A stretch of 64,000 bases of DNA from Burkholderiales bacterium (GTDB lineage Bacteria; Pseudomonadota; Gammaproteobacteria; Burkholderiales; Burkholderiaceae_C). Shown piece after piece: positions 41,699-57,135 of the stretch. The stretch lies in contig JAGWTH010000009.1 of the NCBI GenBank assembly GCA_028868995.1, forward strand, positions 19,811-83,810, read 5' to 3'. Within the stretch, counting starts at the first letter, position 1, and every line of letters begins with the position of its first letter. Under the pieces are notes generated by a model that saw nothing but the letters and a program-made list of their open reading frames with translations, ran no database searches and was not told where the DNA came from. The position numbers and the translations under genes were made by a program.

Positions 41699-43519
41699 AT
41701 GCGTTGCAGCCACGAGATGCCCTTCGGCACCCTCCTGCATCCCGGCGGCGGGGTCACCTTCCGCCTGTGGGCGCCGGCGGCACGCCTGGCGGAACTCGCG
41801 ATCGAGACCGGGCACCCGGCGCCGGAGCTGCATCCGGCCGAGGCCGACGCCCAGGGCTGGTGGGAATGCACCGTCCCCCACGCCACGGCGGGCACGCTCT
41901 ACCGCTGGCGCATCGACGGTCGCCTGCTGGTGCCCGACCCCGCTTCGCGCCAGAACCCCGGGGGGCCGCACGGCCCCAGCTGCGTGGTCGACCCGCGTCA
42001 GTTCGAATGGGAGCCCTGGTCCGGCCGGCCCTGGGCCGAGGCCGTGCTGTACGAACTGCACCTGGGCGCCTTCACCCCCGAAGGCACCTTCGCCGCGGCG
42101 GCCGCGCGGCTGCCGCAGCTGCGCGATGCCGGCATCACCGCGGTGGAACTGATGCCGGTGGCCGACGTCGCCGGCCGCTTCAACTGGGGCTACGACGGCG
42201 TGCTGCCCTACGCCCCGCACCACGCCTACGGCACGCCCGACGACTTCAAGCGCTTCGTGCAGCAGGCGCACCGGCTGGGCCTGATGGTGTTCCTGGACGT
42301 CGTCTACAACCACTTCGGGCCGGACGGGAATTTCCTGCACGCCTATGCCCCGGAGTTCTTCTCGCGCAGCCGCACCAGCCCCTGGGGACCGGCCATCGCC
42401 TTCGACGGCCCGGGCAGCGGCCCGGTGCGCGAGTTCTTCGTGCACAACGCCCTTTACTGGCTGGAGGAATACCGGCTCGACGGGCTGCGGCTGGACGCGG
42501 CCCACGCCATCCGCGACGAGGGCCGGGAGCACATCCTGCACGAGCTCTCGCGGCGGGTGCGCACCGCCATGCACGGCCGCCACGTGCACCTGGTGCTGGA
42601 GAACGAAGACAACGCCTGGCGGCACCTGGCGCCCACGCCGCAGCCGGGCGCGTTCGATGCGCAGTGGAACGACGATTTCCACCACGCCCTGCACGTGGTG
42701 CTCACCGGCGAGACCCAGCGCTACTACCACGACTACGGCGCGGATCCCATGGGCCTGCTGGCGCGCGCCCTCACGCACGGCATGGTGTTCGAGGGCTCGC
42801 CGCGCCGCGAGGGCGGCGCGCGCGAGCAGGTCCGGCCGGCGCCGGCCCAGCCGCTCACCACCCTGGTGAACTTCGCGCACAACCACGACCAGGTCGGCAA
42901 CCGCGCCCGGAGCGAGCGCCTGGGCCAGCTGGTGCCGCCGCGCGCGGCGCTGCTGCCGACCCTGCTGGCGCTGCTCACGCCGGCCATCCCCATGCTGTTC
43001 ATCGGCGAGGAGTGGGGTGCGCCCGAACCCTTCCTCTATTTCGCGGACTGGCAGGGCGAGCTGCGCCAGGCCGTGCGCGCCGGCCGCCGCCATGAATTCG
43101 GCCACGGCGACGGCCGCGACCTGCCCGACCCCTGCAGTGCGCGCACCTTCGCCGCCAGCCGGCCAGACCCGGCACGCGCGGCTGCCGGGCCCGGCCAGGC
43201 CTGGCTGGCCGAAGTCCGCGCCGCCCTCGCTGCGCGCCGCCACTGGATCACTCCGCGGCACGCCCGCCTGCTCACGGGCCGGCACGCGGCGCAGCGCGTG
43301 GGCGAGCGCGGCCTGGCGGTGCGCTGGCGCTACGACGACGGCCAGGTGCTGTTCCTGGAGCTGAACCTCGGGGACGCGCCGCTGCGGGCCGCGCCGCAGC
43401 ACCTGCCTGCCGTCGGCGCGCCAGCGGTCTTCCGCCATGGCCACCCGGACGGCCTGCCGCGCGGCGAGTGGCCGCCCTTCAGCGCGCGCTGGTCGCTGGG
43501 GCCGGAGGCCGGTCCGTGA
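41699..43519 (+). CDS. treZ: Malto-oligosyltrehalose trehalohydrolase
   Basis: FRLWAP, YELHLGAFTPEGTF, WGYDGV, GLRLDAAH and NHDQVGNR motifs. Confidence 0.93.
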   Translation: MRCSHEMPFGTLLHPGGGVTFRLWAPAARLAELAIETGHPAPELHPAEADAQGWWECTVPHATAGTLYRWRIDGRLLVPDPASRQNPGGPHGPSCVVDPRQFEWEPWSGRPWAEAVLYELHLGAFTPEGTFAAAAARLPQLRDAGITAVELMPVADVAGRFNWGYDGVLPYAPHHAYGTPDDFKRFVQQAHRLGLMVFLDVVYNHFGPDGNFLHAYAPEFFSRSRTSPWGPAIAFDGPGSGPVREFFVHNALYWLEEYRLDGLRLDAAHAIRDEGREHILHELSRRVRTAMHGRHVHLVLENEDNAWRHLAPTPQPGAFDAQWNDDFHHALHVVLTGETQRYYHDYGADPMGLLARALTHGMVFEGSPRREGGAREQVRPAPAQPLTTLVNFAHNHDQVGNRARSERLGQLVPPRAALLPTLLALLTPAIPMLFIGEEWGAPEPFLYFADWQGELRQAVRAGRRHEFGHGDGRDLPDPCSARTFAASRPDPARAAAGPGQAWLAEVRAALAARRHWITPRHARLLTGRHAAQRVGERGLAVRWRYDDGQVLFLELNLGDAPLRAAPQHLPAVGAPAVFRHGHPDGLPRGEWPPFSARWSLGPEAGP

Positions 43520-46500
43520 ACGAAGACTACGGGGCGACACTTTCCGAGCAGGCGCGCCGCCTGGGCGTGGCCGACCGCTACCACGGCTTCTGGGGCCGGG
43601 AGGAAAGCGTGCCCGAGGCCGTCCTGCGCCGCGCCGTCGCGGCCATGACCGGCGATGGCCGCGAGCCCCCGCCGCAGCACCTGGGACTGCCCGCGCTGCA
43701 CACCGCGCGCGAGGGCGATCGACCGGTGCTGCGCTGGACCCGCCACGACAGCGCCGATGCCCGCTGGACCCTCACGGTGGAGGACAGCGGGTTCGAAGTC
43801 GCCGCCGGCGCGCTGCGGCGCGGCGGCCAGCAGGTGGAGATCGTCCTGCCCGAGGGCCTCGGCCCCGGCTACTACCGGCTGGCGCTGGAGGGCGCGCCGC
43901 CGCACGAGCATTGCCGCGTGGTCATCGCGCCGCGCCGCTGCCACGTGCCGGAGGCCCTGCGCCGCGGGGAACGCTGGTGGGGCTGCACCGTGCAGCTCTA
44001 CGCCCTGCGCTCGTCGCGCAACTGGGGCATCGGCGACTTCGGCGACCTGCGCCGCCTGTGCGATGCGGCGGCCCGCCAGGGCGCCTCGTTCGTCGGCCTG
44101 AGCCCGCTGCATGCCCTGTTCCCGCACGAGCCGGGAGCGGCCAACCCGTACAGCCCGTCGAGCCGCCAGGCGCTCAATCCGATCTACCTCGACGTGCAGG
44201 CCCTGGTGGAGCTGGGCGACTGCGAGGAGGCGCGGGAGAGATTGCACTCGGAGGCCTTCCAGGAGCGGCTGCAGGCCCTGCGCGAGACGGAGCTGGTCGA
44301 CTACCCGGGCGTGGCCGCCGCCAAGGAGGACGTGCTGCGCGTGCTGTGGCGTCACTTCGAGCGCGACGAGCTGGCCCGCGACGGCGCGCGCGCGGCCGGG
44401 TTCCTCGCCTACGTGCGCGAGCGCGAGTCCACGATCGGGCGCCATGCGCTGTTCGAGGCCCTGCAGGTCCACCTGGCCGCCCGCGACCCGCGGGCCTGGG
44501 GCTGGCCGGCCTGGCCCGAGGCCTGGCGCGACCCGGACGGGCCCGAGGTACGGGCTTTCCGCGAGGCGCATGCCTCCGAGATCGGCTTCCGGTTCTGGCT
44601 GCAGTGGCTGGCGGAACTGCAGCTGGAGGCCTGCCAGCGCTACGCGCGCGGGCGGGGCATGGGCATCGGCCTGTACTGCGACCTGGCGGTGGGCGTCAAC
44701 GGCGGCGGCGCGGAAACCTGGCGGGAGCAAGGGCTGTTCGCGCTCGGCATGCACGCGGGCGCCCCGCCCGACCCGCTGGCGCCGCGCGGCCAGGACTGGG
44801 GCCTGCCGCCCTGGAACCCGCAACGCCTGCGGCAGGCACGCCTGCAGCCCTTCATCGACACGCTGCGCGCCAACATGCGCCACTGCGGCGCGCTGCGCCT
44901 GGACCACGTCATGGCGCTCATGCGCCTGTTCTGGACCGGCCCCGAGGGCGGCACCTACGTCGACTACCCGCTCGCGGACCTGATGGCGGTGCTCGCGCTG
45001 GAAAGCCAGCGCCACCAGTGCATGGTGATCGGCGAGGACCTGGGCAACGTCGCGCCCCGCATGCGCGAGGCGATGCGCGAGGGCGATCTGCTGTCCTACC
45101 GGCCGCTGCTGTTCGAGCGCGACGACGGCGGCGGCTTCCGGGCGCCGGCGCACTGGCAGCGCGAGGCGCTGGCCGTGGTCAGCACGCACGACCTGCCGAC
45201 GCTGCGCGGCTTCTGGCGGGGTGAGGACCTCGAGCTGGCGTCCAGGCTGGGCGTCCATCCCGACGCGGCCGCGCACGAGGCGCAGGTGCTCGCACGCGCC
45301 CAGGACCGTGCGCGCCTGCTGCTGGCCCTGCAGCGCGAGGGCCTGCTGCCCGGGGGCGCCACCGTGCAGCCCACCTCCCTGCCCGATGCGGGACCGTCCT
45401 TCGTCGACGCGGTCCACGCCTACCTCGCGCGCACGCCCTGCTGGCTGGTGGGCGTGCAGCTGGAGGACGTGGCCGGGCAGCTGCTGCAGGTCAACGTCCC
45501 CGGCACCACCGAGGACCGCTTCCCGAACTGGCGGCGCAAGCTCCCGCTCACCCTGGAGGAACTGGCCAACGACGCGCGCTGGGTCTCGCTGGCGGCCGTC
45601 CTGCGTGCCGAGCGCGGCGGCGCCGCGCCGGTCGCCGCCGCCGCCCAGGCGCTGCCCGCGCTCGACACGGCCGACATTCCCGGCGCGACCTACCGGGTGC
45701 AGTTCCACCCGGGCTGCACCTTCGAGGACGTGACCCGGGCGCTGCCCTACCTGCGGTCCCTGGGCGTGAGCCACCTGTACAGCTCGCCCTACCTGCGCGC
45801 GCGCGCCGGCAGCACCCACGGCTACGACATCGTGGACCATGGGGAGGTGAACCCGGATGTCGGCGATGCGACCGCCCATGCGCGCATGTGCCGGGCGCTG
45901 CGCCGCCACGGCCTCGGCCAGATCCTGGACGTGGTGCCCAACCACATGGGCGTGCTGGAGGCCGACAACGCCTGGTGGCTGGACGTGCTGGAGCACGGGC
46001 GCGCCTCGCCGCATGCCGGGACCTTCGACATCGAGTGGCGGCCGGCCCAGCCCGAGATGGAGGGCCGCCTGCTGCTGCCGGTGCTGGCCGACCACTTCGG
46101 CAAGGTGCTGGAGTCGGGCGAGATCCAGCTGCGCTTCGATGGTGAGGCCGGCGAATTCGGCCTGCGCTACTGGGGCCACCGCTTTCCCATCGACCCGGGC
46201 TGCTATCCCGACATCCTCGCGGCCCGGCCGGCGCCGCCGGCGCGCGACGACGACGGCGACAGCCATGCCGTGGTGGCCGCCCTGCTGGAGTCCTTCCGCC
46301 GCCTGCCCTCGCGCGACGACCCGGGCGACGAGGCGCGCCGGGCGCGCGTGCGCGACGCCTCCGTGTTCAAGCGCCAGCTGGCGCGGCTCGCCGCCCGCCA
46401 TGCCTGGCTGGCGCGCTGGATAGCCGCCTGCCTGCAGCCATTCAACGGCCGGCCAGGGGATCCGTCCAGCTTCGACGCGCTGGAGCGCCTGGTCGCCGCC

Positions 46501-48576
46501 CAGGCCTATCGCCTGGCCGACTGGCGCGTGGCGAGCGACGACGTCAACTACCGGCGCTTCTTCGACGTCAGCACGCTCGCCGCGCTGCGCATGGAACGCG
46601 ACGAGGTGTTCGAGGCCACCCACCGCAAGGTGCTGCAGTGGCTGCAGGACGGGCTGCTGACGGGCCTGCGCATCGACCATCCCGACGGACTGAGCGACCC
46701 GCGGGCCTACTTCGAGCGGCTGCAGGCACGCTACGCGGCCCAGGCCGAGGTCGCGGGCCGGCCGCCGCGCGCCCTGTACCTGGTGGCCGAGAAGATCCTG
46801 GCGGAGCACGAATCGCTGCCGGAGGACTGGCCGGTGCACGGCGACACCGGCTACCGCTTCGGCAGCCTGGTCAACGGCCTGTTCGTCGAGTCGCGCAACG
46901 AGTCCGCGCTGCTGGCGGCCTGGCGCGCCTTCACCGGCGAGGACGCGGACTTCGACGAGATCCTGTACCGCTGCAGGAAACTGATCATCGAGACCGCGCT
47001 GTACTCGGAGCTGAACTGGCTGGTGCACACGCTGCACCGCCTCACGCGCGGCAACCGCCGGCGCTGCGACTTCACGCGCAACCGCCTGCGCTGGGCGCTC
47101 GTGGAGGTGGCGGCCGCCTTCCCGGTGTACCGCACCTACCTGCGCGCCGCAGATCCCGCCAGCCCCATGGACCGGCGCCATGTCGACTGGGCGATCGCAG
47201 CGGCCGAACGCCGCCTGGGCCGCTCCGAGGCCGGGGTGCTGGACCACCTGCGCGAGGTGCTGCTGGGAGAAGGCGAGGCCGCCGCCCTGGCGCCGGACGC
47301 GCGCGGCCGCTTCCTGGCGCGCTGGCAGCAGTTCACCGCGCCGGTCCTGGCCAAGGCCATGGAGGATACGGCCTTCTACCGCTACCTGCCCCTGGTGTCG
47401 CTCAACGAGGTGGGGGGCGACCCACGCAGCTTCGGCGTGTCCGTCGCCGCCTTCCACTTCGCCAACCAGGGGCGGCAGCGGCACCGCCCGCATGGCCTGC
47501 TGGCCAGCTCCACCCACGACAGCAAGCGCGGCGAGGACCTGCGCGCCCGCATCGACGTGCTGTCGGAAATCCCGGCGCTGTGGGAGGACTGCCTGCTGCG
47601 CCTGTCGGGCTGGGCCCGCCTGTACCTCACCCCCGGGCCGCGGCAGGCCTGGCCGGGGCCCGACGCGATCTGGCTGCTGTTCCAGACCCTGGTGGGCCTG
47701 TGGCCGGCCGATGCGCCCGACGAGGCCGCACGCGAAGCCCTGCGGGTGCGCCTGCAGGAATACATGCGCAAGGCTGCACGCGAGGCCAAGCTGCATACCA
47801 CCTGGGTGTTCCCCGAGCAGGACTACGAGCAGGCCCTGGAGCGCTACGTCGACGGCGTGCTGCGGCCCGGCCCCAATCCCTTCGCCGAGGAGCTGCAGAA
47901 GTTCACCGCCCGCATCGCGCCCTTCGGCTTCCGCAACAGCCTGGCCCAGCTCGCGCTCAAGTTCACGGCGCCGGGCGTGCCTGACCTCTACCAGGGCTGC
48001 GAACGCTGGAACTTCAGCCTGGTCGATCCGGACAACCGGCGGCCGGTCGACCATGGCGCGCTGGCGCGTTCGCTGGAAGAACTGCAGGGGCTGTACGCAC
48101 ACGGCTGGCCCGAAGCCGGCCAGTGGGACCGGCTCCACGCGCGCGCCGCCGACGGCCACATCAAGCAGCTGGCCACCTGGCGGCTGCTGCTGCTGCGCCG
48201 CTTCCATGCCGAGCTGTTCCGCCGGGCGAACTACGTGCCGCTGGGCGTCGCGGGGCCCGCCGAGGAGCACGCGCTGGCGTTCGGGCGGCTGCACGAAGGC
48301 CAGGCCGTCCTGGTCGTCGCCGCCCGGCTGACCTGGACGCTGTGCGGAGGCGACGATGCCGCCTGGAACCCGGCGCTGTGGGCGGGCACCCGCGTGGACT
48401 GCGGCGCCGAGGCCGCCGGCCTGCGGCGCTTCATCGCCTGGCGCAACTGGCTCACCGGCGCCGAGGTCCGCCTGCCCGCGGAGCCGGCGGCCTGCTTCGA
48501 CCTGCAGGCGCTGTTCGCCGGCGCGGGCGGCCTGCCCTTCGTGGTGCTGGTGGCCGACGAGGAGTCCGCGGCATGA
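43516..48576 (+). CDS. malQ-treY: Fused 4-alpha-glucanotransferase (MalQ, GH77) and malto-oligosyltrehalose synthase (TreY, GH13)
   Basis: MalQ: WGIGDFGDL, PYSPSSR, GAPPD, RLDHV, GEDLG, STHDLPT. TreY from about 45676: ATYRVQF, STHGYD, GLRIDHPDGL, AEKIL, STHDSKRGED, GVPDLYQG. One continuous ORF. Confidence 0.93.
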   Translation: MNEDYGATLSEQARRLGVADRYHGFWGREESVPEAVLRRAVAAMTGDGREPPPQHLGLPALHTAREGDRPVLRWTRHDSADARWTLTVEDSGFEVAAGALRRGGQQVEIVLPEGLGPGYYRLALEGAPPHEHCRVVIAPRRCHVPEALRRGERWWGCTVQLYALRSSRNWGIGDFGDLRRLCDAAARQGASFVGLSPLHALFPHEPGAANPYSPSSRQALNPIYLDVQALVELGDCEEARERLHSEAFQERLQALRETELVDYPGVAAAKEDVLRVLWRHFERDELARDGARAAGFLAYVRERESTIGRHALFEALQVHLAARDPRAWGWPAWPEAWRDPDGPEVRAFREAHASEIGFRFWLQWLAELQLEACQRYARGRGMGIGLYCDLAVGVNGGGAETWREQGLFALGMHAGAPPDPLAPRGQDWGLPPWNPQRLRQARLQPFIDTLRANMRHCGALRLDHVMALMRLFWTGPEGGTYVDYPLADLMAVLALESQRHQCMVIGEDLGNVAPRMREAMREGDLLSYRPLLFERDDGGGFRAPAHWQREALAVVSTHDLPTLRGFWRGEDLELASRLGVHPDAAAHEAQVLARAQDRARLLLALQREGLLPGGATVQPTSLPDAGPSFVDAVHAYLARTPCWLVGVQLEDVAGQLLQVNVPGTTEDRFPNWRRKLPLTLEELANDARWVSLAAVLRAERGGAAPVAAAAQALPALDTADIPGATYRVQFHPGCTFEDVTRALPYLRSLGVSHLYSSPYLRARAGSTHGYDIVDHGEVNPDVGDATAHARMCRALRRHGLGQILDVVPNHMGVLEADNAWWLDVLEHGRASPHAGTFDIEWRPAQPEMEGRLLLPVLADHFGKVLESGEIQLRFDGEAGEFGLRYWGHRFPIDPGCYPDILAARPAPPARDDDGDSHAVVAALLESFRRLPSRDDPGDEARRARVRDASVFKRQLARLAARHAWLARWIAACLQPFNGRPGDPSSFDALERLVAAQAYRLADWRVASDDVNYRRFFDVSTLAALRMERDEVFEATHRKVLQWLQDGLLTGLRIDHPDGLSDPRAYFERLQARYAAQAEVAGRPPRALYLVAEKILAEHESLPEDWPVHGDTGYRFGSLVNGLFVESRNESALLAAWRAFTGEDADFDEILYRCRKLIIETALYSELNWLVHTLHRLTRGNRRRCDFTRNRLRWALVEVAAAFPVYRTYLRAADPASPMDRRHVDWAIAAAERRLGRSEAGVLDHLREVLLGEGEAAALAPDARGRFLARWQQFTAPVLAKAMEDTAFYRYLPLVSLNEVGGDPRSFGVSVAAFHFANQGRQRHRPHGLLASSTHDSKRGEDLRARIDVLSEIPALWEDCLLRLSGWARLYLTPGPRQAWPGPDAIWLLFQTLVGLWPADAPDEAAREALRVRLQEYMRKAAREAKLHTTWVFPEQDYEQALERYVDGVLRPGPNPFAEELQKFTARIAPFGFRNSLAQLALKFTAPGVPDLYQGCERWNFSLVDPDNRRPVDHGALARSLEELQGLYAHGWPEAGQWDRLHARAADGHIKQLATWRLLLLRRFHAELFRRANYVPLGVAGPAEEHALAFGRLHEGQAVLVVAARLTWTLCGGDDAAWNPALWAGTRVDCGAEAAGLRRFIAWRNWLTGAEVRLPAEPAACFDLQALFAGAGGLPFVVLVADEESAA

Positions 48577-50051
48577 AGATCCTGTTCGCCACGCCCGAAT
48601 GCGCGCCCTACGTGAAGACCGGCGGGCTGGGCGACGTCAGCGCGGCCCTGCCGGCGACGCTGGCCGGCCTGGGCCACGACGTGCGCATCCTGCTGCCGGC
48701 CTACCAGGGCATGAAGGTGAGCGGCGAGGTTGGCGACGGGCTCGACCTGCCGGCCTCGGGTCCCTGGCCCGCCGCGCAACTGGTCCCGGTGAGGGTCGAA
48801 CACGGCATCACCCTGCTGCTGCTGGCCTGCCCGGGCCTCTACCAGCGTCCCGGCGGCCCCTACGTCGACGCCGGCGGCCGCGACCATCCCGACAACGCCC
48901 TGCGGTTCGGCCTGCTGGGGCGGGTGGCGGCCCGGCTCGGGACCGCGCAGACGCCCCTGCCGGGCTGGACGGCCGACATCGTGCACGCCAACGACTGGCC
49001 CTGCGGGATGGCGCCCCTGTACCTGGCACACGAGCGCCTGGCCGCACCGCGCGACGCCACGGCCGCCAGCGTGCTCACCATCCACAACCTCGCCTTCCAG
49101 GGCCTGTTCCCCCTGGCCAGCGCCGACCTGCTGGGTGTGCCGCGACGCTGGCGCGGCATCGACGGCGTCGAATACTGGGGCCAGCTGTCCATGCTGAAGG
49201 CGGGCGTGCAGTTCGCCGACGCGATCACGACCGTCAGCCCGAACTACGCCCGCGAGATCCAGACCCCGGCGCATGGCGCGGGCTTCGACGGCATCCTGCG
49301 CGCGCGCGCCGCGCGCCTGCACGGCATCCTCAACGGCATCGACACGCGCCTGTGGGATCCGCAGCAGGACCTGCTGCTGCCCTTCCGCTTCGGTCCCGGC
49401 CGCATGCAGGGCAAAGCCCAGTGCAAGGCCACCCTGCAGGCCCGCATGGGACTGCCGGCGGCCAGCGGGGCGATGCTGTTCGCCGTGGTGAGCCGGCTCA
49501 CGGCGCAGAAGGGCATCGACCTGGTGCTGGCGGCCCTGCCCCGGCTCGCAGGCACGGGCGCGCAGCTGGTGGTCCTGGGCCAGGGCGAGCCGCAGCTGCA
49601 GCAGGCCCTGCAGGCCGCGGCGCAGCGGCACCCGCAGCAGGTGGCGGTGACGCTCGGTTTCGACGAAGGGCTGGCCCACCTGGTCGAAGCCGGCGCGGAC
49701 GCGTTCCTGATGCCCTCGCGCTTCGAACCTTGCGGCCTCAACCAGATGTACAGCCAGGCGTACGGCACGCCGCCCATCGTCGCTCCGGTGGGCGGACTGC
49801 TCGATTCGGTGATCGACGTCGACGCGGACCCCGCGCGCGGCACGGGCTTCGTCATGGCCGGCGCCGATGCCGCGGACCTGGAGGACGCCATCGTCCGGGC
49901 CGCGCGCCTGTGGCGCGAGCCGCAGCGCTGGCGCCGCCTGCAGGCCAACGGCATGGCACGCCCCTTCGGCTGGCAGGACAGCGCCCAGCGCTACCTGGAG
50001 GTCTATCGCCTGGCGCTGCAGGAGCGAGGCGGCAGCGGGCCGCCTCGATGA
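48573..50051 (+). CDS. glgA: Glycogen synthase
   Basis: KTGGLGDV, HANDW, TIHNLAFQG, GILNGID, QKGID and PSRFEPCGLNQM motifs. Confidence 0.95.
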   Translation: MKILFATPECAPYVKTGGLGDVSAALPATLAGLGHDVRILLPAYQGMKVSGEVGDGLDLPASGPWPAAQLVPVRVEHGITLLLLACPGLYQRPGGPYVDAGGRDHPDNALRFGLLGRVAARLGTAQTPLPGWTADIVHANDWPCGMAPLYLAHERLAAPRDATAASVLTIHNLAFQGLFPLASADLLGVPRRWRGIDGVEYWGQLSMLKAGVQFADAITTVSPNYAREIQTPAHGAGFDGILRARAARLHGILNGIDTRLWDPQQDLLLPFRFGPGRMQGKAQCKATLQARMGLPAASGAMLFAVVSRLTAQKGIDLVLAALPRLAGTGAQLVVLGQGEPQLQQALQAAAQRHPQQVAVTLGFDEGLAHLVEAGADAFLMPSRFEPCGLNQMYSQAYGTPPIVAPVGGLLDSVIDVDADPARGTGFVMAGADAADLEDAIVRAARLWREPQRWRRLQANGMARPFGWQDSAQRYLEVYRLALQERGGSGPPR

Positions 50052-50131
50052 CTTAGGGAAATCGCTTAAGGGCAAGTTCTTGACGCCCCACCGGATAATC
50101 CACCGGTCGGCGGGAGCGTTTCCGGCAGCCC

Positions 50132-50812
50132 ATGGATGGAACGGAGGGATTCAAGTTGTCCAGCAGCTTTGTGCGCGACCTGCGCGAGACCGTCGAGGCG
50201 CAGTGGCGCGAGATCAAGCGGGGCCAGTTCTGGCGACTGGTCATGGAGCGCCCGGTGACCCGGCCCCTGTACCGCGACATGATGCTGCAGGTGTATCACT
50301 ACTCCCGGCACAACTCGATCAACCAGGCGGTGGCAGCCTTCGTGCCGGCGCCCGAGGGACTGCTGCGCTTCGTCTACCGCCATGCTTCCGAGGAACTCGG
50401 CCACGAGCGGATGGTGTCGCACGACCTGCGCAGCATCGGGCTGCTGGACGACGCGGACCTGCAGAAGCCGCCGCTGCCCGCCACGGAGGCGCTGATCGGC
50501 TACCTGTATTTCGTCGGCCTGCGCTACGGCCCCATCCCGCGCCTGGGCTACAGCTTCTGGGCGGAGGACGCCCATGCGCACATCGGCGAGCCGCTCGCCA
50601 AGATCTGCACCGACCTGCAGCTCACCAGCAAGAACGTCACCTTCTTCGGCTCCCATGCCGAGGCCGACGCGGACCACATCCGCCAGGTCGAGGAAGCGAT
50701 CGAGAAGTACGCCGTCACCCCGCAGGACCAGGAGCTGGTGACGCGCGTGGCGCTGACCACTCTCTCGCTCACCGGGCAGCTGCTCGAGCAGGTCGCCCAG
50801 CGCCACCGATAA
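50132..50812 (+). CDS. Heme-oxygenase-like diiron enzyme (iron-containing redox enzyme, CADD/TenA-like fold); start may be TTG at about 50156
   Basis: EELGHE, FWAE and HAEADADH (H-x3-D-x2-H) match the E/H/E/H/D/H ligand pattern of CADD-type HDOs. Confidence 0.82.
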   Translation: MDGTEGFKLSSSFVRDLRETVEAQWREIKRGQFWRLVMERPVTRPLYRDMMLQVYHYSRHNSINQAVAAFVPAPEGLLRFVYRHASEELGHERMVSHDLRSIGLLDDADLQKPPLPATEALIGYLYFVGLRYGPIPRLGYSFWAEDAHAHIGEPLAKICTDLQLTSKNVTFFGSHAEADADHIRQVEEAIEKYAVTPQDQELVTRVALTTLSLTGQLLEQVAQRHR

Positions 50813-50827
50813 CCAGGGAGACCGACG

Positions 50828-51124
50828 ATGCTTGCTCAAGCCATCACCCTTGCCGAGCCCCTGCCGAACCCGGGCGCGCGGGATGACGAGCCCTCGGTGG
50901 CGCGCGACGTCGTGCTGCGCCACCTGAAGGACCCGGCCGAGATCGCGACCGTGCTGCACCTGCGCGACGAGATCGACCTGTCCGTGCACGCGGCCGGCGG
51001 GCTGCAGCAATTCGAGAGCCTCGAAAAAAAAGAGACGAGTGCGGGTTCGTGTTCGCCTTCGACCTCTACGGCGAGCGGATCGGCACCATCCGCATCGTTC
51101 CGATGGGCTACGGCCTCACCCTGA
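50828..51124 (+). CDS. N-terminal part of a LuxI/FeeM-like GNAT protein (frame 1; goes out of family frame after the A8 run)
   Basis: CAGGGAG RBS; tail after LEKK (ETSAGSCSPSTSTASGSAPSASFRWATASP) looks like an off-frame translation. Confidence 0.7.
   Translation: MLAQAITLAEPLPNPGARDDEPSVARDVVLRHLKDPAEIATVLHLRDEIDLSVHAAGGLQQFESLEKKETSAGSCSPSTSTASGSAPSASFRWATASP
51023..51032 (+). other. Slippery site GAA AAA AAA G (A8); -1 frame transition
   Basis: A -1 shift gives ...LEKK-RDECGFVFAFDLYGERIGTIRIVP..., joining the two ORFs into a 212-aa protein. Confidence 0.75.
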
Positions 51125-51465
51125 CCGAGACCCTGCTGCCCGAACTGGGCGAGGCCTCCCCGCCGCTGCTGCCGGGTGACTGGGAGGTCGGCCGGCTGGT
51201 CCTGGCCCCCGAGTACCGCACCGACGTCGAAGCGCTCAGGCGCTGCCTGCACCTGGCGCTGGAGTACGCCCGCGAGCACACCCGCATCGACACGCTCTAC
51301 GCCTCCTGCACCCACGTGCTCGGCCGCCTGTACCGCCGTTTCGCGTTCACCGCCTTCGCGCGCGACGTCCCGTTGCGCGGCACCCCCAAGACCTACACCC
51401 TCATCCGCGGACCGCTGGCCGACGTGGGCCGGGCCCTCGCCGCGCGCCCGCTGGCCGCGGTGTAG
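51049..51465 (+). CDS. C-terminal part of a LuxI/FeeM-like GNAT acyltransferase
   Basis: GTIRIVP, TLTETLL, WEVGRLVL and LYRRFAF motifs; GTG start without a clear RBS. Confidence 0.78.
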   Translation: MFAFDLYGERIGTIRIVPMGYGLTLTETLLPELGEASPPLLPGDWEVGRLVLAPEYRTDVEALRRCLHLALEYAREHTRIDTLYASCTHVLGRLYRRFAFTAFARDVPLRGTPKTYTLIRGPLADVGRALAARPLAAV

Positions 51466-51485
51466 GACGATCCACGAGACCGCGC

Positions 51486-54029
51486 GTGCTCCGCAAGTCG
51501 CTCCACCAGCTGTTCGCCCGTTACGCCGAGTACCACCGGCACGGGCCGCTGATGCTGCGCTACCTCAGCCTGCTGGGGTTCGTGTTCTTCCCGGCCTACT
51601 ACCTGTTCCGGTTCACCAAGAGCACCCCGGGATACGACGACTGGCTGCTGCGCGTCGTCGACGCGGCCATCTGCCTCGCGCTGTTCCTGCGGGACCGCTG
51701 GCCCGAGCGGCTGAAGCCGTACTACTACCCGTACTCCTATGCGGTGCTGGTGGTGACGCTGCCCTTCACCTTCGTGTTCACGTCGCTGAAGAACGGCGGC
51801 GGCTCGGTGGCGGTCGGCAACACGCTGATGGCGGCCTTCCTCGTGCTGCTGCTGTCCGACTGGCGCAATACGGCCGTGATCCTGCTGGCCGGCATCGCCA
51901 TGGCGACCGGGCTGTACGTGGCCACCGACGCCCATCCGGCGATGCCGGTCGACTACCTGGAGCGCTTCCCCATCCTGCTGGCCACCGTGGTCGGGGGCAG
52001 CCTGTTCAAGGCGGCGCTGGAGCACGCCACCGCGGAGCGCGTGCGCAGCGCCTATGCCGCGCTCGCCGGCTCGATCGCCCACGAGATGCGCAACCCGATG
52101 GCCCAGATCAAGTCCAGCCTGGACACGATCGAGGGCCTGCTGCCGCGGTCGCGGCGCGGCGCCAGCCAGGCGATCGCCAGCGAGGACCTCCGCACGCTGT
52201 ACCGGCAGGTGGCGGAGGGCGAGCTCGCCGTGCGCCGGGGCCTGCAGGTCATCTCGATGACGCTGGACGAGGTCAATTCGCGGCCGCCCGACCCGTCGAA
52301 GTTCGCCTTCCTGTCGGCCGCCGAGGTCTGCGCCAAGGCGGTGCAGGACTACGGCTACGAGACGGAGGCGCAGCGCGAGCGCGTGGCATTGAACGTCATC
52401 AAGGACTTCACGTTCCGCGGCGACGAGACGGCCTACCTGTTCGTGCTGTTCAACCTGATCAAGAACGCCCTCTATTACCTGGGCCCCTACCCGGGGACCG
52501 TGCTGACGATCACCGTCGACGACAACCAGGTGCGGGTGCGCGACAACGGGCCGGGCGTCCCGCCCGACCTGCTCCCGGTGCTGTTCGAGCCTTTCCGCTC
52601 CACCGGCAAGAGGGGCGGCACGGGCCTGGGGCTGGCGTACTGCCACCGCGTGATGCGCGCCTTCGGCGGCGAGATCTCCGCCGCCTCGGTGAGGGGCGAG
52701 TTCACCGAGTTCACCATGCGCTTCCCGCCGGTGGACGAAGCCGAGCGCGAGGAACACCGGCGCACCACCATCGCCCAGGCGCGCACGGCCCTGGCCGGCA
52801 AGCGCATCCTCATCGTGGAGGACGACCCGGTGCAGCGCATGGCCACCCGCCAGAAGCTCGGCCTGCTGACGATGACTGCGGAACTGGCCGAGGCGGAGGA
52901 CGGCCGCGCGGCGCTCGACCTGCTGGCATCCCAGCGCTTCGACGTCGTCCTGCTCGACCTGCGGATGCCGGGCGTGGACGGCTACACGGTGGCCGAGCGC
53001 ATCCGCCGCGAACCCGGACCCAACCAGGACGTCCGGATCATGGCCTACACCAGCGAGCCGGCGCACCTGGCGCGGGAGAAGGCGCTGCGCGTGGGCATGG
53101 ACGCCTTCGTCAGCAAGCCCTGCGCCCAGCTGCCGCTGCTCGCCGCGCTGCAGAACCTCGTGCAGGAGCGGCGCAGCGTGGCCACGGCGCAGCTGGAGCA
53201 GCGCCGCATCCTGGTGGCCGACGACCACGCCTTCAACCGCAAGGCCATGACGGCCTACCTGCGCAATGCGGGCGCCACGGTGATCGAGGCGGAACACGGC
53301 CAGGAGGTGCTGGACCACCTGCACCGATCCGGAACCTTCGACGCGGTGGTGCTCGACCTGCACATGCCGGTGCTGGACGGCCTGGAGGTCACCCGGATGA
53401 TCCGCAGCAGCGAGGCGCCCTGGGCCGAGGTGCCGATCGTCGCGGTCACCGCGCGCTCGGACGAATCCGCCGTCGCCGCCGCGCGGGCGGCGGGCATGAA
53501 CGGCTTCCTGGTCAAGCCGGTCGAGCCCGCCCTGCTCTACGAGGAGCTGGGCAAGCTGGTCGGGCAGGGCCCCGCGCCGAAGCGCGCCTTCTCGCTGCCC
53601 CCGGCCCCGCTCCCGCAGCCCGAGGAAGGCCTGCTGAACCTGTCGCGGCTGGAAAGCTACCGCCGGCTCGGCATGCTCGGCGAGCTGCTGAACGACTACG
53701 TGCCCGAGATGGGCCGGCTGGTGGCGCGCCTGTCGGTGGCTGCGGGCCGCGGCGACCGCGAGGCGGCCGTCACCGTGCTGCACTCGCTGCTGGGCATGAG
53801 CGGCGAGGCCGGCGTCCAGGCGCTCTATCGCAAGGTGCGCCAAGTCTATGTCCCCCTGCTCGAACAGCAGCAATGGCCCGCCGAGGGCTGGCTGGCCGAC
53901 CTGCAGCAGCTCGCCGAGCGCAGCCACGAGGCCCTGAGGGCCTACTGCGCGGCCCACGCCGCCCCGGCGCCGGGATCGGGCTCCGGCACCGGGCCCGGCC
54001 CCGGCGCGCCCCCGGCCAGGCAGGCGTGA
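51486..54029 (+). CDS. Hybrid sensor histidine kinase, CqsS/LqsS-like membrane domain + HisKA + HATPase + REC + REC + Hpt
   Basis: About 6 TM with FPAYY, YDDWLLR and LPFTF; IAHEMRNP; NLIKNA, DNGPG, GTGLGL; LLDLRMP and VLDLHMP; C-terminal LHSLLGMSG. Confidence 0.9.
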   Translation: MLRKSLHQLFARYAEYHRHGPLMLRYLSLLGFVFFPAYYLFRFTKSTPGYDDWLLRVVDAAICLALFLRDRWPERLKPYYYPYSYAVLVVTLPFTFVFTSLKNGGGSVAVGNTLMAAFLVLLLSDWRNTAVILLAGIAMATGLYVATDAHPAMPVDYLERFPILLATVVGGSLFKAALEHATAERVRSAYAALAGSIAHEMRNPMAQIKSSLDTIEGLLPRSRRGASQAIASEDLRTLYRQVAEGELAVRRGLQVISMTLDEVNSRPPDPSKFAFLSAAEVCAKAVQDYGYETEAQRERVALNVIKDFTFRGDETAYLFVLFNLIKNALYYLGPYPGTVLTITVDDNQVRVRDNGPGVPPDLLPVLFEPFRSTGKRGGTGLGLAYCHRVMRAFGGEISAASVRGEFTEFTMRFPPVDEAEREEHRRTTIAQARTALAGKRILIVEDDPVQRMATRQKLGLLTMTAELAEAEDGRAALDLLASQRFDVVLLDLRMPGVDGYTVAERIRREPGPNQDVRIMAYTSEPAHLAREKALRVGMDAFVSKPCAQLPLLAALQNLVQERRSVATAQLEQRRILVADDHAFNRKAMTAYLRNAGATVIEAEHGQEVLDHLHRSGTFDAVVLDLHMPVLDGLEVTRMIRSSEAPWAEVPIVAVTARSDESAVAAARAAGMNGFLVKPVEPALLYEELGKLVGQGPAPKRAFSLPPAPLPQPEEGLLNLSRLESYRRLGMLGELLNDYVPEMGRLVARLSVAAGRGDREAAVTVLHSLLGMSGEAGVQALYRKVRQVYVPLLEQQQWPAEGWLADLQQLAERSHEALRAYCAAHAAPAPGSGSGTGPGPGAPPARQA

Positions 54030-54079
54030 CGATCTCCCCGCCGTGACGGGGGACCGGTGAATCTTGCTAAAGTGACGGC

Positions 54080-54352
54080 ATGGCACGCACTGTCCACTGC
54101 ATCAAGCTCGGCCGCGACGCCGAAGGCCTCGACTTCCCCCCCTATCCCGGCGAGCTGGGCAAGCGCATCTACGAAAGCGTCAGCAAGGAAGCCTGGGCGC
54201 AGTGGCTCAAGCACCAGACCATGCTGGTCAACGAGAACCGGCTGAACCTCGCCGACCAGCGCGCCCGCGAGTACCTCAAGCGCCAGATGGAGAACCACTT
54301 CTTCGGCAGCGGCGCAGACGCGGCCGCGGGATATGTCCCGCCCACGGCGTAA
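54080..54352 (+). CDS. yggX: Fe(II)-trafficking / oxidative damage protection protein
   Basis: [23 protein letters not shown] and [14 protein letters not shown] motifs. Confidence 0.95.
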
Positions 54353-54378
54353 CTGCGCCCCACCCTCCCGCTAAGCGC

Positions 54379-56217
54379 ATGAGCGAAGTCGTCGCCTGGG
54401 ACGACGACGGCACGCCGCGCAGCCCGCGCTTCGACGACATCTACCGTTCCGCCGCCGGCGGCCTGGCGCAGGCGCAGCACGTGTTCCTGCAAGGCTGCGG
54501 CCTGCCCGCGACCTGGGCCGGGCTGGAGCAGTGGCGCGTGCTGGAAGCCGGCTTCGGCCTGGGACTGAACTTCCTCGCGGCCTGGCACGCCTGGCGCACC
54601 GACCCCGCGCGGCCGCGGCTGCTGCATTTCACCTCGATCGAGGCCTGGCCCGTGGCAGCGGACGACCTCCTGCGCAGCGTAGCGGGCTACCCGGCGCTGC
54701 AGCCGCTGGCCGAGGCCCTGGCCGCGCAATGGCAGGGGCTGACACCCGGCTTCCACCGCCTCGCCTTCGAGGACGGACAGGTGCTGCTCACGCTGTGCGT
54801 GGGCGAGGTCGCGCCCATGCTGCGCGAACTGGACTTCCGCGCCGACGCGGTCTTCCTCGACGGATTCGATCCCACGCGCAACCCGCAGATGTGGGATCTC
54901 GCCACGCTCAAGGCCGTCACGCGCCTGGCGCAGCGCGGTGCGCGCCTGGCGACGTGGACCGTGTCCGGCCAGGTGCGGCGCGACCTGCGGACCTGCGGCT
55001 GGCAGGTGGAAAAGCTTCCCGGCCTGCCTCCCAAGCGCGAATGCCTGGCCGCCCGCTTCGACCCCGCGTGGGAGCCGAAAGGCCTCGCCGCGGGCCCGGC
55101 CGTGGAGCCTGCCGATGCCATCGTGATCGGGGCCGGGCTCGCGGGCGCGGCAACGGCCGCGAGCATCGCGCGCCGCGGCTGGTCGGTGCGCGTGCTCGAT
55201 GCCGCACGCACGCCTGCGTCAGGGGCCTCGGCCCTGCCCGCAGGACTGCTGGCGCCGCACCAGAGTCCGGACGACAACCTGCTGTCGCGCCTGTCGCGCG
55301 CCGGTGTGCGCATCACCCTGCGCGAGGCGCAGCAGCGGCTCGCCCAGGGCCTGGAATGGGACCGCACCGGCGTGCTCGAATGGCGCGGCGCGGACCGGAG
55401 GCCCCCGCCTCCCGGCGATGCGTTCGCGCCCTGGACCCGCGAGGCCACGCCCGTGCAGCGGGAGGTCGCCGGAACCGCGGCCTCCGATGCGGCCTGGTGG
55501 CATGCGAACGCGGCCTGGATCGAGCCCGCCGCGCTGGTGCGCAGCTGGCTGCGGGAGCCCGGCGTGCGCTTCGAGGGCGGCCGGACCGTGTCGCGCATCG
55601 CGCGCCCGGGCGAACGCTGGGTCGTCGAGGATGGCTCCGGCAGCCCGCTCGGCGAGGCACGGATCGTGGTCGTGGCCGCCGCCCTGGGCAGCGCAGCGCT
55701 GCTGGATGGCCGGGTGAGCCTGCATCCGGTGCGCGGCCAGGTCAGCTGGGCGCCCCTCGGCGACGATGCCGACCGCCTGCCGCCTTTTCCCGTGAACGGC
55801 CACGGCCACTTCCTGCCGCGCGTGCCCCTGGTGGAGCGCGGCGCCTGGATCACCGGCTCCACCTACGGCCGCGGCGATGCCGACCCGGGACTGCGCAGCC
55901 AGGACGATGCGCTGAACCTGCAGCGTGTGGCCGAGGTGCTGCCCGGGGCCGCTCGGGCCATGCGGGCTGCGGCCGAGCGCGGACAGGTGCGCAGCTGGAG
56001 CGGCGTGCGCTGCACCTCGTCCGATCGCCGTCCGCTGGTGGGGGAGGTGGCGCCGGGACTGTGGCTCAGCACCGCCATGGGTTCCCGCGGCCTGACCTTC
56101 GCGGCGCTGTGCGCGGAGCTGCTTGCCGCCCGCCTGCACGGCGAGCCGCTGCCGCTGGAAGCACGCCTGGCCGAGGCGCTGGACCTCAGGCGACAGGCCC
56201 CAGCTCGATCCGGCTGA
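54379..56217 (+). CDS. mnmC: Bifunctional tRNA mnm5s2U34 biosynthesis protein
   Basis: FDDIY, LEAGFGLGLNFL, FLDGFDPTRNPQMW; FAD domain IGAGLAG; GSRGLT. Confidence 0.93.
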   Translation: MSEVVAWDDDGTPRSPRFDDIYRSAAGGLAQAQHVFLQGCGLPATWAGLEQWRVLEAGFGLGLNFLAAWHAWRTDPARPRLLHFTSIEAWPVAADDLLRSVAGYPALQPLAEALAAQWQGLTPGFHRLAFEDGQVLLTLCVGEVAPMLRELDFRADAVFLDGFDPTRNPQMWDLATLKAVTRLAQRGARLATWTVSGQVRRDLRTCGWQVEKLPGLPPKRECLAARFDPAWEPKGLAAGPAVEPADAIVIGAGLAGAATAASIARRGWSVRVLDAARTPASGASALPAGLLAPHQSPDDNLLSRLSRAGVRITLREAQQRLAQGLEWDRTGVLEWRGADRRPPPPGDAFAPWTREATPVQREVAGTAASDAAWWHANAAWIEPAALVRSWLREPGVRFEGGRTVSRIARPGERWVVEDGSGSPLGEARIVVVAAALGSAALLDGRVSLHPVRGQVSWAPLGDDADRLPPFPVNGHGHFLPRVPLVERGAWITGSTYGRGDADPGLRSQDDALNLQRVAEVLPGAARAMRAAAERGQVRSWSGVRCTSSDRRPLVGEVAPGLWLSTAMGSRGLTFAALCAELLAARLHGEPLPLEARLAEALDLRRQAPARSG

Positions 56218-56938
56218 GCCAGGCGTCCAGCCGCTCGGGATCGGGCGGGTCTTCCAGCAGTGCGGTGCTGCCGCGCCAGGCGCGCAGGCGCTCGGACACC
56301 GAGCGCGCCGCCTTGGTCAGGGCGAGGTGCGGAATGGGACGACGGCCGCGGCGCAGCTGGGACACCAGGGTCCAGGCATCCATGTCGTGCAGGCCCGCAT
56401 CGACCAGGGCCAGGTCGTACTGCTTGCCGCGCGCCAGGGCCACGGCCTCGGACCCGCTCTCCGCCTCGTCGGCCTGCGTGAGGCGCGCCAGCGACAGCCG
56501 CGCGCGCAGGTAAAGCCGCTCGCCCCGGTCGGCGCTCACGATCAGGGCCTGCTTCTGCGACATGATCGCCTCGGGCTCGGGATCGGGATCCAGGTCGAGG
56601 TCGAGGGCGTCCTGGGGCGCGAACAAGGCGTCCAGGCCGGCCACCACCTCGGGCCACACGATCGGACGCGGAAAGCTGCGCCAGACGGCCGCCGGCGCGT
56701 TGCTCCCGACCCACAACAGCCGCAGGTCGCGCTGCATGGGGGACTCGGCCTCGACCCGTGCCTCCCAGCTCTGGCCGTCCAGCAGTGCCACGCGCGCCGG
56801 CTCCCCCGCCTGCGGCGTCCACAGCTGGTACATGGTGCGGCACTGCTCGGACAGGCGGAACACCGTGTTCAGCGCGTGGCGCTCCTCGTCGGAGAAGCCG
56901 ACCACCTTGACGTAGATGCGTTGGACCATCGACTGCAT
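56186..56938 (-). CDS. Hypothetical protein with a C-terminal degenerate receiver (REC)-like domain
   Basis: C-terminus ALIVSAD...EAESGSEAV...YDLALVD...DAWTLVSQLR resembles REC; unassigned N-terminal domain. Confidence 0.75.
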   Translation of the reverse strand: MQSMVQRIYVKVVGFSDEERHALNTVFRLSEQCRTMYQLWTPQAGEPARVALLDGQSWEARVEAESPMQRDLRLLWVGSNAPAAVWRSFPRPIVWPEVVAGLDALFAPQDALDLDLDPDPEPEAIMSQKQALIVSADRGERLYLRARLSLARLTQADEAESGSEAVALARGKQYDLALVDAGLHDMDAWTLVSQLRRGRRPIPHLALTKAARSVSERLRAWRGSTALLEDPPDPERLDAWLSRIELGPVA

Positions 56939-57029
56939 GTGCCCCCAAAGACGACAGGGGCGCTTCCATGACCGTGCGGCCTGTTCCGGCCCGGGGCCCG
57001 AACGACCGGGGAAAGCGCTTCCCTCCTCG

Positions 57030-57052
57030 CGCATAAGCTTATCCGCATAAGC
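57030..57052. promoter_or_regulatory. Repeat/palindrome upstream of the cys operon (possible CysB-type LysR site)
   Basis: CGCATAAGC twice (57030 and 57044); ATAAGCTTAT palindrome at 57033-57042. Confidence 0.4.
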
Positions 57053-57135
57053 GCCGAACAAGAAAGTAGTTTGGATCCATCTGCGGCGTCCCTAAAGTCG
57101 CGGCTCCACCCGAACCGGGTGCCACGCCCCGATCC

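Follow-up and report, generated by a model that had tools for sequence, protein, structure and literature searches.

The stretch of DNA considered here, hereafter the window, comprises 64,000 nucleotides of contig JAGWTH010000009.1 from a Burkholderiales bacterium, a betaproteobacterium of soil, and all coordinates follow its numbering. Between glgA and yggX lie three closely spaced coding units on the + strand, separated by gaps of 15 and 20 nucleotides (Table 1). They correspond to a heme-oxygenase-like diiron oxidase (HDO), an acyltransferase of the GNAT type, and a hybrid sensor histidine kinase with a CqsS/LqsS-type membrane domain. The GNAT unit is not one open reading frame (ORF). Its codons 1-68 occupy one frame, its codons 69-212 the -1 frame, and the two parts meet at a run of eight adenines (A8). 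A preliminary description of this DNA had reported three same-strand genes; the coordinates and flanks given there hold, but the treatment of the GNAT as a single ORF does not. The term "fused GNAT" used in that account hinted at a change of frame, which was neither reported nor interpreted. Its identification of an HDO-fold diiron enzyme, a LuxI/FeeM-like GNAT, and a CqsS-like membrane domain is borne out by the profile and structure comparisons presented below, and the motifs that it listed (WEVGRL, GTIRIVP, FPAYY, YDDWLLR, LPFTF, and AHEMRNP) are all present.

The two GNAT frames overlap at GA_A AAA AAA G (positions 51022-51032), a slippery stretch of the A_AAA_AAA type beyond which the -1 frame carries the protein on. 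A shift into the -1 frame, or one extra adenine in the messenger RNA, joins the parts through the sequence ...LEKK|RDECGF... to give a conceptually fused protein of 212 residues. The unshifted frame of part 1 continues to a stop at 51122-51124, and its product contains 98 residues. The GTIRIVP, WEVGRL, and RLYRRF motifs all reside in part 2. The A8 run is the sole run of eight adenines or thymines in the window, with 0.05 expected by chance.

Related loci were surveyed with one genome per species, which provided 60 loci in genera including Ramlibacter, Caenimonas, Polaromonas, Hydrogenophaga, Paraburkholderia, and Ralstonia, among others. The junction is exactly A8 in 56 of these. In one locus (L057) the run is A9 followed by GG, such that a -1 shift is still required, and in two others (L003 and L018) the gene is in frame and the A run is absent. 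The 13-nucleotide site G-A8-GAGA is invariant in 57 sequences, even though the GNATs diverge to about 44% identity and the third codon positions neighboring the site vary freely. In the genes of the window, AAA accounts for 5% of the lysine codons and GAA for 19% of the glutamate codons. Because both are rare, the combination GAA-AAA-AAA is strongly disfavored in the absence of selection for it. The frame of the C-terminal part is itself closed 3-20 codons 5' of the run in many loci, which means that this part cannot simply start further 5' in that frame. The relatives that contain no run read GAA AAG AAG CGC GAC at the junction, which specifies EKKRD in frame, and distant homologues display E-x-K/R-D at this position, again in frame.

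The pattern of variability in 21 aligned sequences follows the change of frame. Before the run, the third codon position is the most variable one when read in the upstream frame (1.30 versus 0.86 and 0.74), and after the run the same is true when the -1 frame is read (1.38 versus 0.73 and 0.57). As read from these alignments, purifying selection changes frame exactly at the A8 run, and both halves are constrained. That recoding is required for a full-length GNAT is well supported, and the full-length protein most likely arises by programmed -1 frameshifting or by transcriptional slippage.

Some sequencing technologies are prone to errors in homopolymers, and the change of frame could be attributed to a sequencing or assembly error in the window. 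The same A8 run and -1 relation are observed in 56 independent assemblies, however, and A8 is likewise read in the DNA contigs of five separate metagenome runs. Such an error is thereby excluded, and this explanation can be regarded as effectively refuted. The metagenome contigs also disfavor phase variation at the DNA level as the main mechanism, namely that the A8 run is a switch governed by slipped-strand mispairing, with most genomes OFF and rare A9 or A6 variants ON. Homopolymer tracts are well known as contingency loci (Antonov 2013, PMC3711429), one of the surveyed loci has an A7 run, and in one metagenome run the contigs are interrupted close to the tract. Among the 60 species, though, of which 56 have exactly A8, no ON length (A9 with GAGA behind it, or A6) was seen, and both halves remain subject to purifying selection in lineages for which OFF would be the permanent state. 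A switch of this type is considered very unlikely. In the metagenome run just mentioned, contigs end at position 50931 and resume at 51033, just past the A run, and those of four other runs cross it cleanly; poor coverage, or a tract of mixed length in that sample, may account for the break.

Two routes to the full-length protein can be envisaged, RNA polymerase slippage from A8 to A9 and a ribosomal -1 slip on A_AAA_AAA. Either of them, or both together, would lead to the identical protein. In reporter constructs, A7, A9, and A11 tracts display slippage efficiencies of 10, 40, and 63%, respectively (PMC3711429). A run of nine As or Ts slips efficiently in transcription, and A_AAA_AAA is a weaker ribosomal slip site than A_AAA_AAG in Escherichia coli (PMC5009743). 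The arrangement resembles that of known poly-A recoding genes such as E. coli dnaX (A_AAA_AAG), Thermus dnaX, insertion sequence (IS) elements, and Mg-chelatase. In these, an A tract likewise joins overlapping frames and is kept across orthologues, and related genes that lack the tract are in frame. The slippage run of Thermus dnaX is given as nine As in one of the two papers cited and as nine Ts in the other (PMC3711429, PMC5009743). The locus differs from these examples in that the host gene encodes a putative autoinducer synthase and that a conserved Shine-Dalgarno (SD)-like or hairpin stimulator was not found. Folds of the 40 and 60 nucleotides downstream of the run are no more stable than those of shuffled sequences (mean z of 0.0), with no conserved hairpin, and the upstream fold signal is weak (z of -0.6). 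Likewise, no internal SD-like element near the run is conserved across the aligned sequences. A GC hairpin located upstream of the run in some Ramlibacter sequences was dismissed, being neither family-wide nor well placed.

The fused GNAT matches a single Pfam family, FeeM (PF21926), with a score of 26.4 bits (E of 7e-6) against a cut-off of 27, and a precomputed match to this family is present in most of its relatives. The Pfam scan of the fused protein (E <= 0.1) gave no match to the LuxI model (Autoind_synth), and an NCBIfam scan of it returned nothing. The best sequence match of the GNAT family profile in the Protein Data Bank (PDB) is the N-acyl-homoserine lactone synthase TofI (3P2F, E of 1e-3), the WELSRF segment of which aligns with WEVGRL. 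Within this motif, Trp 119, Glu 120, and Arg 123 are invariant among the relatives. The AlphaFold model of the fused protein (pLDDT of 85, pTM of 0.80) has residues 24-72 of the N-terminal part packed into the GNAT domain. A Foldseek search with the model retrieved generic GNATs, with LasI at rank 2 (1RO5, TM-score of 0.60) and FeeM at rank 10. On visual inspection, the E-x-D-x-x-D pattern associated with LuxI is not apparent in the EKKRDE segment, an observation that serves as a lead only. Judged from these comparisons, the candidate synthase next to the kinase is a LuxI/FeeM-like GNAT that lies outside the LuxI Pfam family and at the border of FeeM. It has in common with the LuxI-type (TofI, LasI) and FeeM-type synthases the GNAT-like fold and the WE-x-x-R strand, but it is paired with a membrane kinase rather than with a LuxR-type receptor, and its gene needs recoding.

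The family comprises 165 members among 1.84 billion representative proteins, and these are C-part-only calls, N-part-only calls (77-105 residues), and intact proteins of approximately 190-260 residues. Annotation pipelines report either a 140-residue "FeeM domain protein", which is the C-terminal part, accompanied by an unannotated ORF of 80-100 residues, or two short ORFs. Such calls would be in keeping with a GNAT that is dead or consists of two small proteins, the kinase then being an orphan CqsS-like receptor for hydroxyketones made elsewhere or by other species. The canonical lqsA/lqsS clusters known from some Burkholderiales (PMC3376566) would accord with an orphan receptor. A pseudogene, on the other hand, would not hold an invariant 13-nucleotide site or frame-specific selection on both of its halves, nor would it stay adjacent to the kinase gene in 59 of 60 loci, and in-frame fused orthologues exist. 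With respect to two small proteins, the C-terminal part has no conserved start codon, such that gene callers choose M, V, or L at varying positions, and the N-terminal part is integral to the modeled GNAT fold. This explanation is regarded as extremely unlikely.

The overall architecture of the kinase consists of a sensor domain with six transmembrane (TM) helices followed by HisKA, HATPase, two receiver (REC) domains, and a histidine phosphotransfer (HPt) domain. The hydropathy profile indicates about six TM helices across residues 24-179. His 199 is close in position to the published phospho-acceptors of CqsS (His 194) and LqsS (His 200) (PMC3376566), and the HisKA/HATPase region lies directly behind TM6. 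Scans of the TM domain alone with NCBIfam and Pfam revealed no curated family, only a match to LuxN at the edge of the H-box. A tblastn search of plasmids (PLSDB) with the TM domain provided a single match, on pTM3 of Tistrella, and this served as a bridge to proteins named CqsS, for relatives of the pTM3 protein carry that name in JGI/UniRef. Alignment of 15 window-type TM domains, taken without the H-box, with 11 CqsS-named TM domains (hhalign) gave a probability of 100% and an E of 1.1e-39 over 172 ungapped columns. Two of the CqsS-named comparison kinases are encoded beside or near PF00155 (CqsA/LqsA-type) aminotransferase genes. On the basis of this alignment, the TM domain is homologous to CqsS/LqsS-type sensors, with the comparison set being one named by automatic annotation. 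For the cytoplasmic part, the best NCBIfam match is LuxN, at 259.7 bits and thus far under the cut-off of 1550 bits.

Two observations were made on the loci used in this comparison. The pTM3 protein of Tistrella mobilis (L061, 5890-6783) is a CqsS-like protein of 297 residues that has the TM domain but lacks a HATPase domain, and its H-box region is degenerate. It bears the name CqsS in Tistrella bauzanensis. In a canonical-looking CqsS/CqsA-type locus (L063, 7501-9543), a gene for a fatty-acid hydroxylase (PF04116) accompanies the CqsA-like gene, and here too a diiron-type oxidase is encoded alongside a signal synthase.

The preliminary description had treated the three genes as a triad, with the GNAT and the HDO proposed to act as a two-enzyme signal synthase in place of CqsA. 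The neighborhood survey does not support the triad in this form. The GNAT gene adjoins a kinase gene with a homologous TM domain in 59 of the 60 loci, the exception being cut by a contig end, whereas an HDO gene is present in only 20. The order is HDO-GNAT-kinase in 10 loci, GNAT-HDO-kinase in nine, and kinase-GNAT-HDO in one. As judged from these neighborhoods, the conserved unit is the pair formed by the GNAT and the CqsS-like hybrid kinase rather than the triad. The pair is conserved across Comamonadaceae and Burkholderiaceae, and an in-frame GNAT relative with 38% identity is also directly followed by a CqsS-like kinase. The HDO is therefore not a fixed half of the synthase. An enzymatic couple of the two has partial support, in that the GNAT and HDO genes are adjacent in three gene orders and in Shewanella denitrificans. 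The reported absence of CqsA stands as well and can be extended: with two CqsA-like queries, a tblastn search brought up no gene of this kind, neither in the window nor in any of the related 60 loci. Canonical lqsA/lqsS clusters have been reported in Polaromonas spp. and Burkholderia xenovorans (PMC3376566), and thus the GNAT-kinase pair probably exists as a paralogous system and does not take the place of lqsA/lqsS.

The HDO matches PF14518 with 65.9 bits (cut-off of 28.9), and its closest relative of known structure is PDB entry 3DDE (E of 6.8e-40). This entry is Sden_3740 from Shewanella denitrificans, deposited by structural genomics as a "TENA/THI-4 protein, DUF with heme-oxygenase-like fold". 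There is also a weak match to MboA, an alkyne-forming HDO (PMC13108848). Glu 88 and His 91 (E-x2-H), Glu 145, and His 175, Asp 179, and His 182 (H-x3-D-x2-H) are invariant in 16 HDO relatives with identities of 32-86%. By analogy to the CADD/UndA pattern, these six residues are candidate ligands of the 3-His/3-carboxylate class described for HDOs (PMC13108848). The HDOs of the 3DDE subfamily in Shewanella denitrificans, Pseudomonas, and Pyxidicoccus all adjoin a DUF3419 gene. In the first two of these an AMP-binding gene is situated just 3', an RND/MMPL transporter gene is found only in the Shewanella locus, and a PF00155 gene only in that of Pseudomonas. As a possible CqsA, the latter was uninformative (27-30% identity to the two CqsA-like queries, in partial alignments). 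No kinase gene was found among the called genes within 6 kb of these three HDOs, and the neighborhoods look like an uncharacterized biosynthetic cluster. In Shewanella denitrificans a gene for a FeeM-like GNAT (24.9 bits) abuts the start of the HDO gene. A GNAT and HDO enzymatic couple is therefore plausible from gene order, and the HDO probably acts in tailoring, as an optional accessory to the GNAT-kinase pair. The 3DDE locus and that of the window have in common the HDO subfamily, the invariant candidate ligands, and an adjoining FeeM-like GNAT gene, which in Shewanella lies directly 5' of the HDO gene. The 3DDE-type loci are distinguished by the DUF3419 neighbor and by the lack of a called kinase gene within 6 kb.

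Other genes recur near the pair in the related loci. Seven loci that have no HDO (L004, L006, L008, L011, L019, L020, and L021) contain a gene for a membrane protein of the FA_desaturase type with histidine boxes, positioned about 1-2 kb 3' of the kinase genes on the opposite (-) strand. This protein may serve as a diiron tailoring enzyme in place of the HDO. Near the pair, a gene for an acyl-CoA ligase is often encountered. In about 35 of the 60 loci, the hybrid kinase is directly followed by a second protein of approximately 390-470 residues with REC, HisKA, and HATPase domains (examples are given in Table 1). In three loci (L009, L012, and L037) the kinase gene is followed by genes for a REC-like protein and for a regulator of the LuxR type (GerE), and the same holds for L067 by Pfam matches alone. 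The second REC-kinase, LuxR-type, REC-only, and desaturase-like neighbors are absent from the window.

Taken together, these features favor, by a modest balance of probability, the interpretation of the locus as a quorum-sensing-like synthase/receptor module in which the synthase is expressed via slippage. Such a synthase/receptor pair is most likely one that has not been described before. In a search of the literature, with the exception of subscription-only papers, no description was found of a GNAT paired with a CqsS-like kinase, and no recoding was reported in an autoinducer-synthase-like gene; searches on 3DDE and on DUF3419 together with HDOs, under the same limit, likewise brought up no description of a GNAT-kinase system. 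In the proposed mechanism, the GNAT would acylate a small amine, or otherwise transfer a fatty acyl group from acyl carrier protein or CoA, to produce a hydrophobic signal. Where present, the HDO would tailor this signal oxidatively, and in some of the relatives without an HDO the membrane desaturase-like enzyme may do so instead. An enamide as the product is a chemically reasonable proposal only. The signal would partition into the membrane and bind to the CqsS-type TM domain, thereby shifting the kinase/phosphatase balance as in CqsS and LuxN, and phosphoryl groups would be relayed from His 199 to an aspartate of a receiver domain, to His 766 of the HPt domain, and on to a response regulator. 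The A8 site would allow only a fraction of the transcripts or ribosomes to yield active synthase, such that synthesis of the signal might be low, noisy, or condition-dependent.

The architecture that would support such signaling is close to that of CqsA/CqsS from Vibrio, LqsA/LqsS from Legionella, and related alpha-hydroxyketone systems. These possess a homologous six-TM sensor directly fused to HisKA/HATPase, with the histidine near position 199, and the receptor gene sits beside that of a putative signal synthase, as it does here. In the window, however, the neighbor is a LuxI/FeeM-type GNAT rather than the pyridoxal phosphate-dependent CqsA, and the kinase bears two receivers as well as its own HPt domain. 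The TM consensus sequences also differ, with YDDLxxR and TDWRNT in the present family versus FPQxYENLxLR and LLVDxxS in the CqsS type. LuxM/LuxN of Vibrio harveyi follows the same logic, namely an acyl-transfer-type synthase beside a polytopic hybrid kinase, but the match to LuxN is limited to the kinase and receiver part, with the TM domain meeting it only at the edge of the H-box. To our knowledge, LuxM is not a GNAT-type LuxI homologue.

A different function for the pair can be envisioned, namely a membrane-homeostasis loop in which a lipid made by the GNAT, and modified by the HDO or the desaturase, is sensed by the CqsS-type TM domain in the producing cell itself. In variants of this scheme, the product is an N-acyl aminolipid or other membrane lipid, or the TM domain senses the state of the membrane. 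The enzymes of the FeeM family make lipid-like N-acyl amino acids according to the family description, the sensor domain is wholly membrane-embedded, the accessory enzymes (HDO and FA_desaturase-like) are of the fatty-acid-oxidase type, and the acyl-CoA ligase gene is often nearby, all of which would fit. Every characterized receptor of the CqsS/LqsS family, by contrast, senses diffusible autoinducers, and adjacency of synthase and receptor genes is a hallmark of quorum-sensing cassettes (PMC3376566); the data themselves are as compatible with self-sensing as with population sensing. A homeostasis loop is considered unlikely.

With regard to the slippage-dependent signaling module, a number of points weigh against it. 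The A7 run of Ramlibacter sp. MMS24-I3-19 (L013) would not be rescued by a -1 shift. In Ramlibacter terrae H242 (L059), the A8 run is kept and the GNAT and kinase genes appear fragmented; this and the A7 run may represent real decay or homopolymer sequencing errors. Two metatranscriptome contigs extend across the run, and both have A8 there without an additional adenine. The RNA evidence consists of assembled contigs, which hide minority variants, and transcriptional slippage, if it occurs, is probably a minority event. The failure to find a conserved hairpin or internal SD-like stimulator also counts here, as do the FeeM score just below its cut-off, the missing match to the LuxI model, and the lack of an HDO in two thirds of the loci. 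The search for cqsA was local, covering the window and the 60 loci rather than whole genomes, and cross-talk with canonical lqsA/lqsS systems is possible. A cognate response regulator for the kinase was not identified within the window, and the diffusible signal is a prediction from gene content.

A more specific form of the signaling interpretation is put forward tentatively, as a possibility that falls short of even chances. It would hold that a new class of autoinducer is widespread in soil Comamonadaceae and Burkholderiaceae, a lipid-like signal made by the GNAT (and in some lineages by the HDO as well), perceived by a divergent receptor of the CqsS family, and gated by slippage. The signal might then be an oxidized N-acyl amine such as an enamide, and slippage might render a subpopulation, or a tunable fraction, of the cells producers. 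The CqsS/LqsS receptors have so far been tied to CqsA synthases and alpha-hydroxyketone signals. Pairing with a LuxI/FeeM-like acyltransferase, if true, would mean that these receptors have been recruited to another chemical language, and would hint at a new autoinducer class in abundant soil and rhizosphere Burkholderiales. The invariant A8 site offers a clean new example of recoding, and one that is easy to test, in a bacterial gene that is not mobile; such examples are few beyond dnaX, prfB, and the IS elements. Its location in a putative signal synthase suggests that slippage may set or randomize signal output. The split or truncated annotation of the gene renders the family invisible to genome mining. 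In addition, the locus supplies a genomic context for the orphan structural-genomics entry 3DDE.

Table 1. Features of the locus and of selected related loci. Positions are those of the window unless a related locus (L number) is named.
Feature	Position	Strand	Remarks
glgA	48576-50051		PF08323
HDO gene	50132-50812	+	226 aa; PF14518
Shine-Dalgarno-like AGGGAG	50815-50820	+	7 nt 5' of the GNAT ATG; read from sequence
GNAT gene, part 1	50828-51031	+	zero frame; ATG start; codons 1-68; ends ...FESLEKK
Recoding site G-AAAAAAAA-GAGA	51023-51035	+	A run 51024-51031
GNAT gene, part 2	51031-51465	+	-1 frame; codons 69-212 plus stop; starts RDECGFVFAF
Hybrid sensor histidine kinase gene	51486-54029	+	GTG start; 847 aa
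Membrane sensor domain, CqsS/LqsS-type	51486-52040	+	aa 1-185; about six TM helices
Phospho-acceptor His199, AHEMRNP H-box	52080-52082	+	directly after TM6
HATPase_c	52419-52730	+	aa 312-415; PF02518, E 1.8e-21
Receiver domain 1, Asp491	52785-53135	+	domain scans
Receiver domain 2, Asp624	53208-53546	+	PF00072, aa 575-687
HPt, His766	53682-53846	+	PF01627, 17.3 bits, below cut-off; HSLLGMSG motif
yggX	54080-54352		PF04362
Second REC-HisKA-HATPase protein, examples	L006 8871-10286; L067 9930-11117		
HDO/DUF3419 loci (Shewanella, Pseudomonas, Pyxidicoccus)	L069 5453-8933; L070 5352-10425; L071 6001-7832		

The G+C content of the module (50000-52500) is 0.68-0.70, as compared to 0.73-0.75 for the flanks. 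In most relatives from Ramlibacter and Caenimonas, the module is located beside msrB/selO-type genes rather than glgA and yggX. The lower G+C content and the differing neighbors suggest that the cassette has moved. An Rfam scan of positions 49500-54500 gave no match, and a promoter scan of the locus indicated no sigma-70-like site. One terminator-like match within the kinase gene was dismissed as being at chance level.

Two further proteins are encoded in the vicinity. Approximately 2 kb 3' of the kinase gene, past yggX and mnmC, lies the gene for a 291-residue protein (56186-57061, - strand) with a receiver domain match of 29.7 bits (cut-off of 30.2). It is dissimilar to the REC-only proteins encoded 3' of the kinase in related loci, and it may or may not act as a partner of the kinase in the relay. 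Directly 5' of glgA is an ORF of 1702 codons (43468-48576, + strand) that contains MalQ_N, 4-alpha-glucanotransferase (PF02446), and alpha-amylase catalytic domains, and its product looks like MalQ fused to a TreY-like enzyme.

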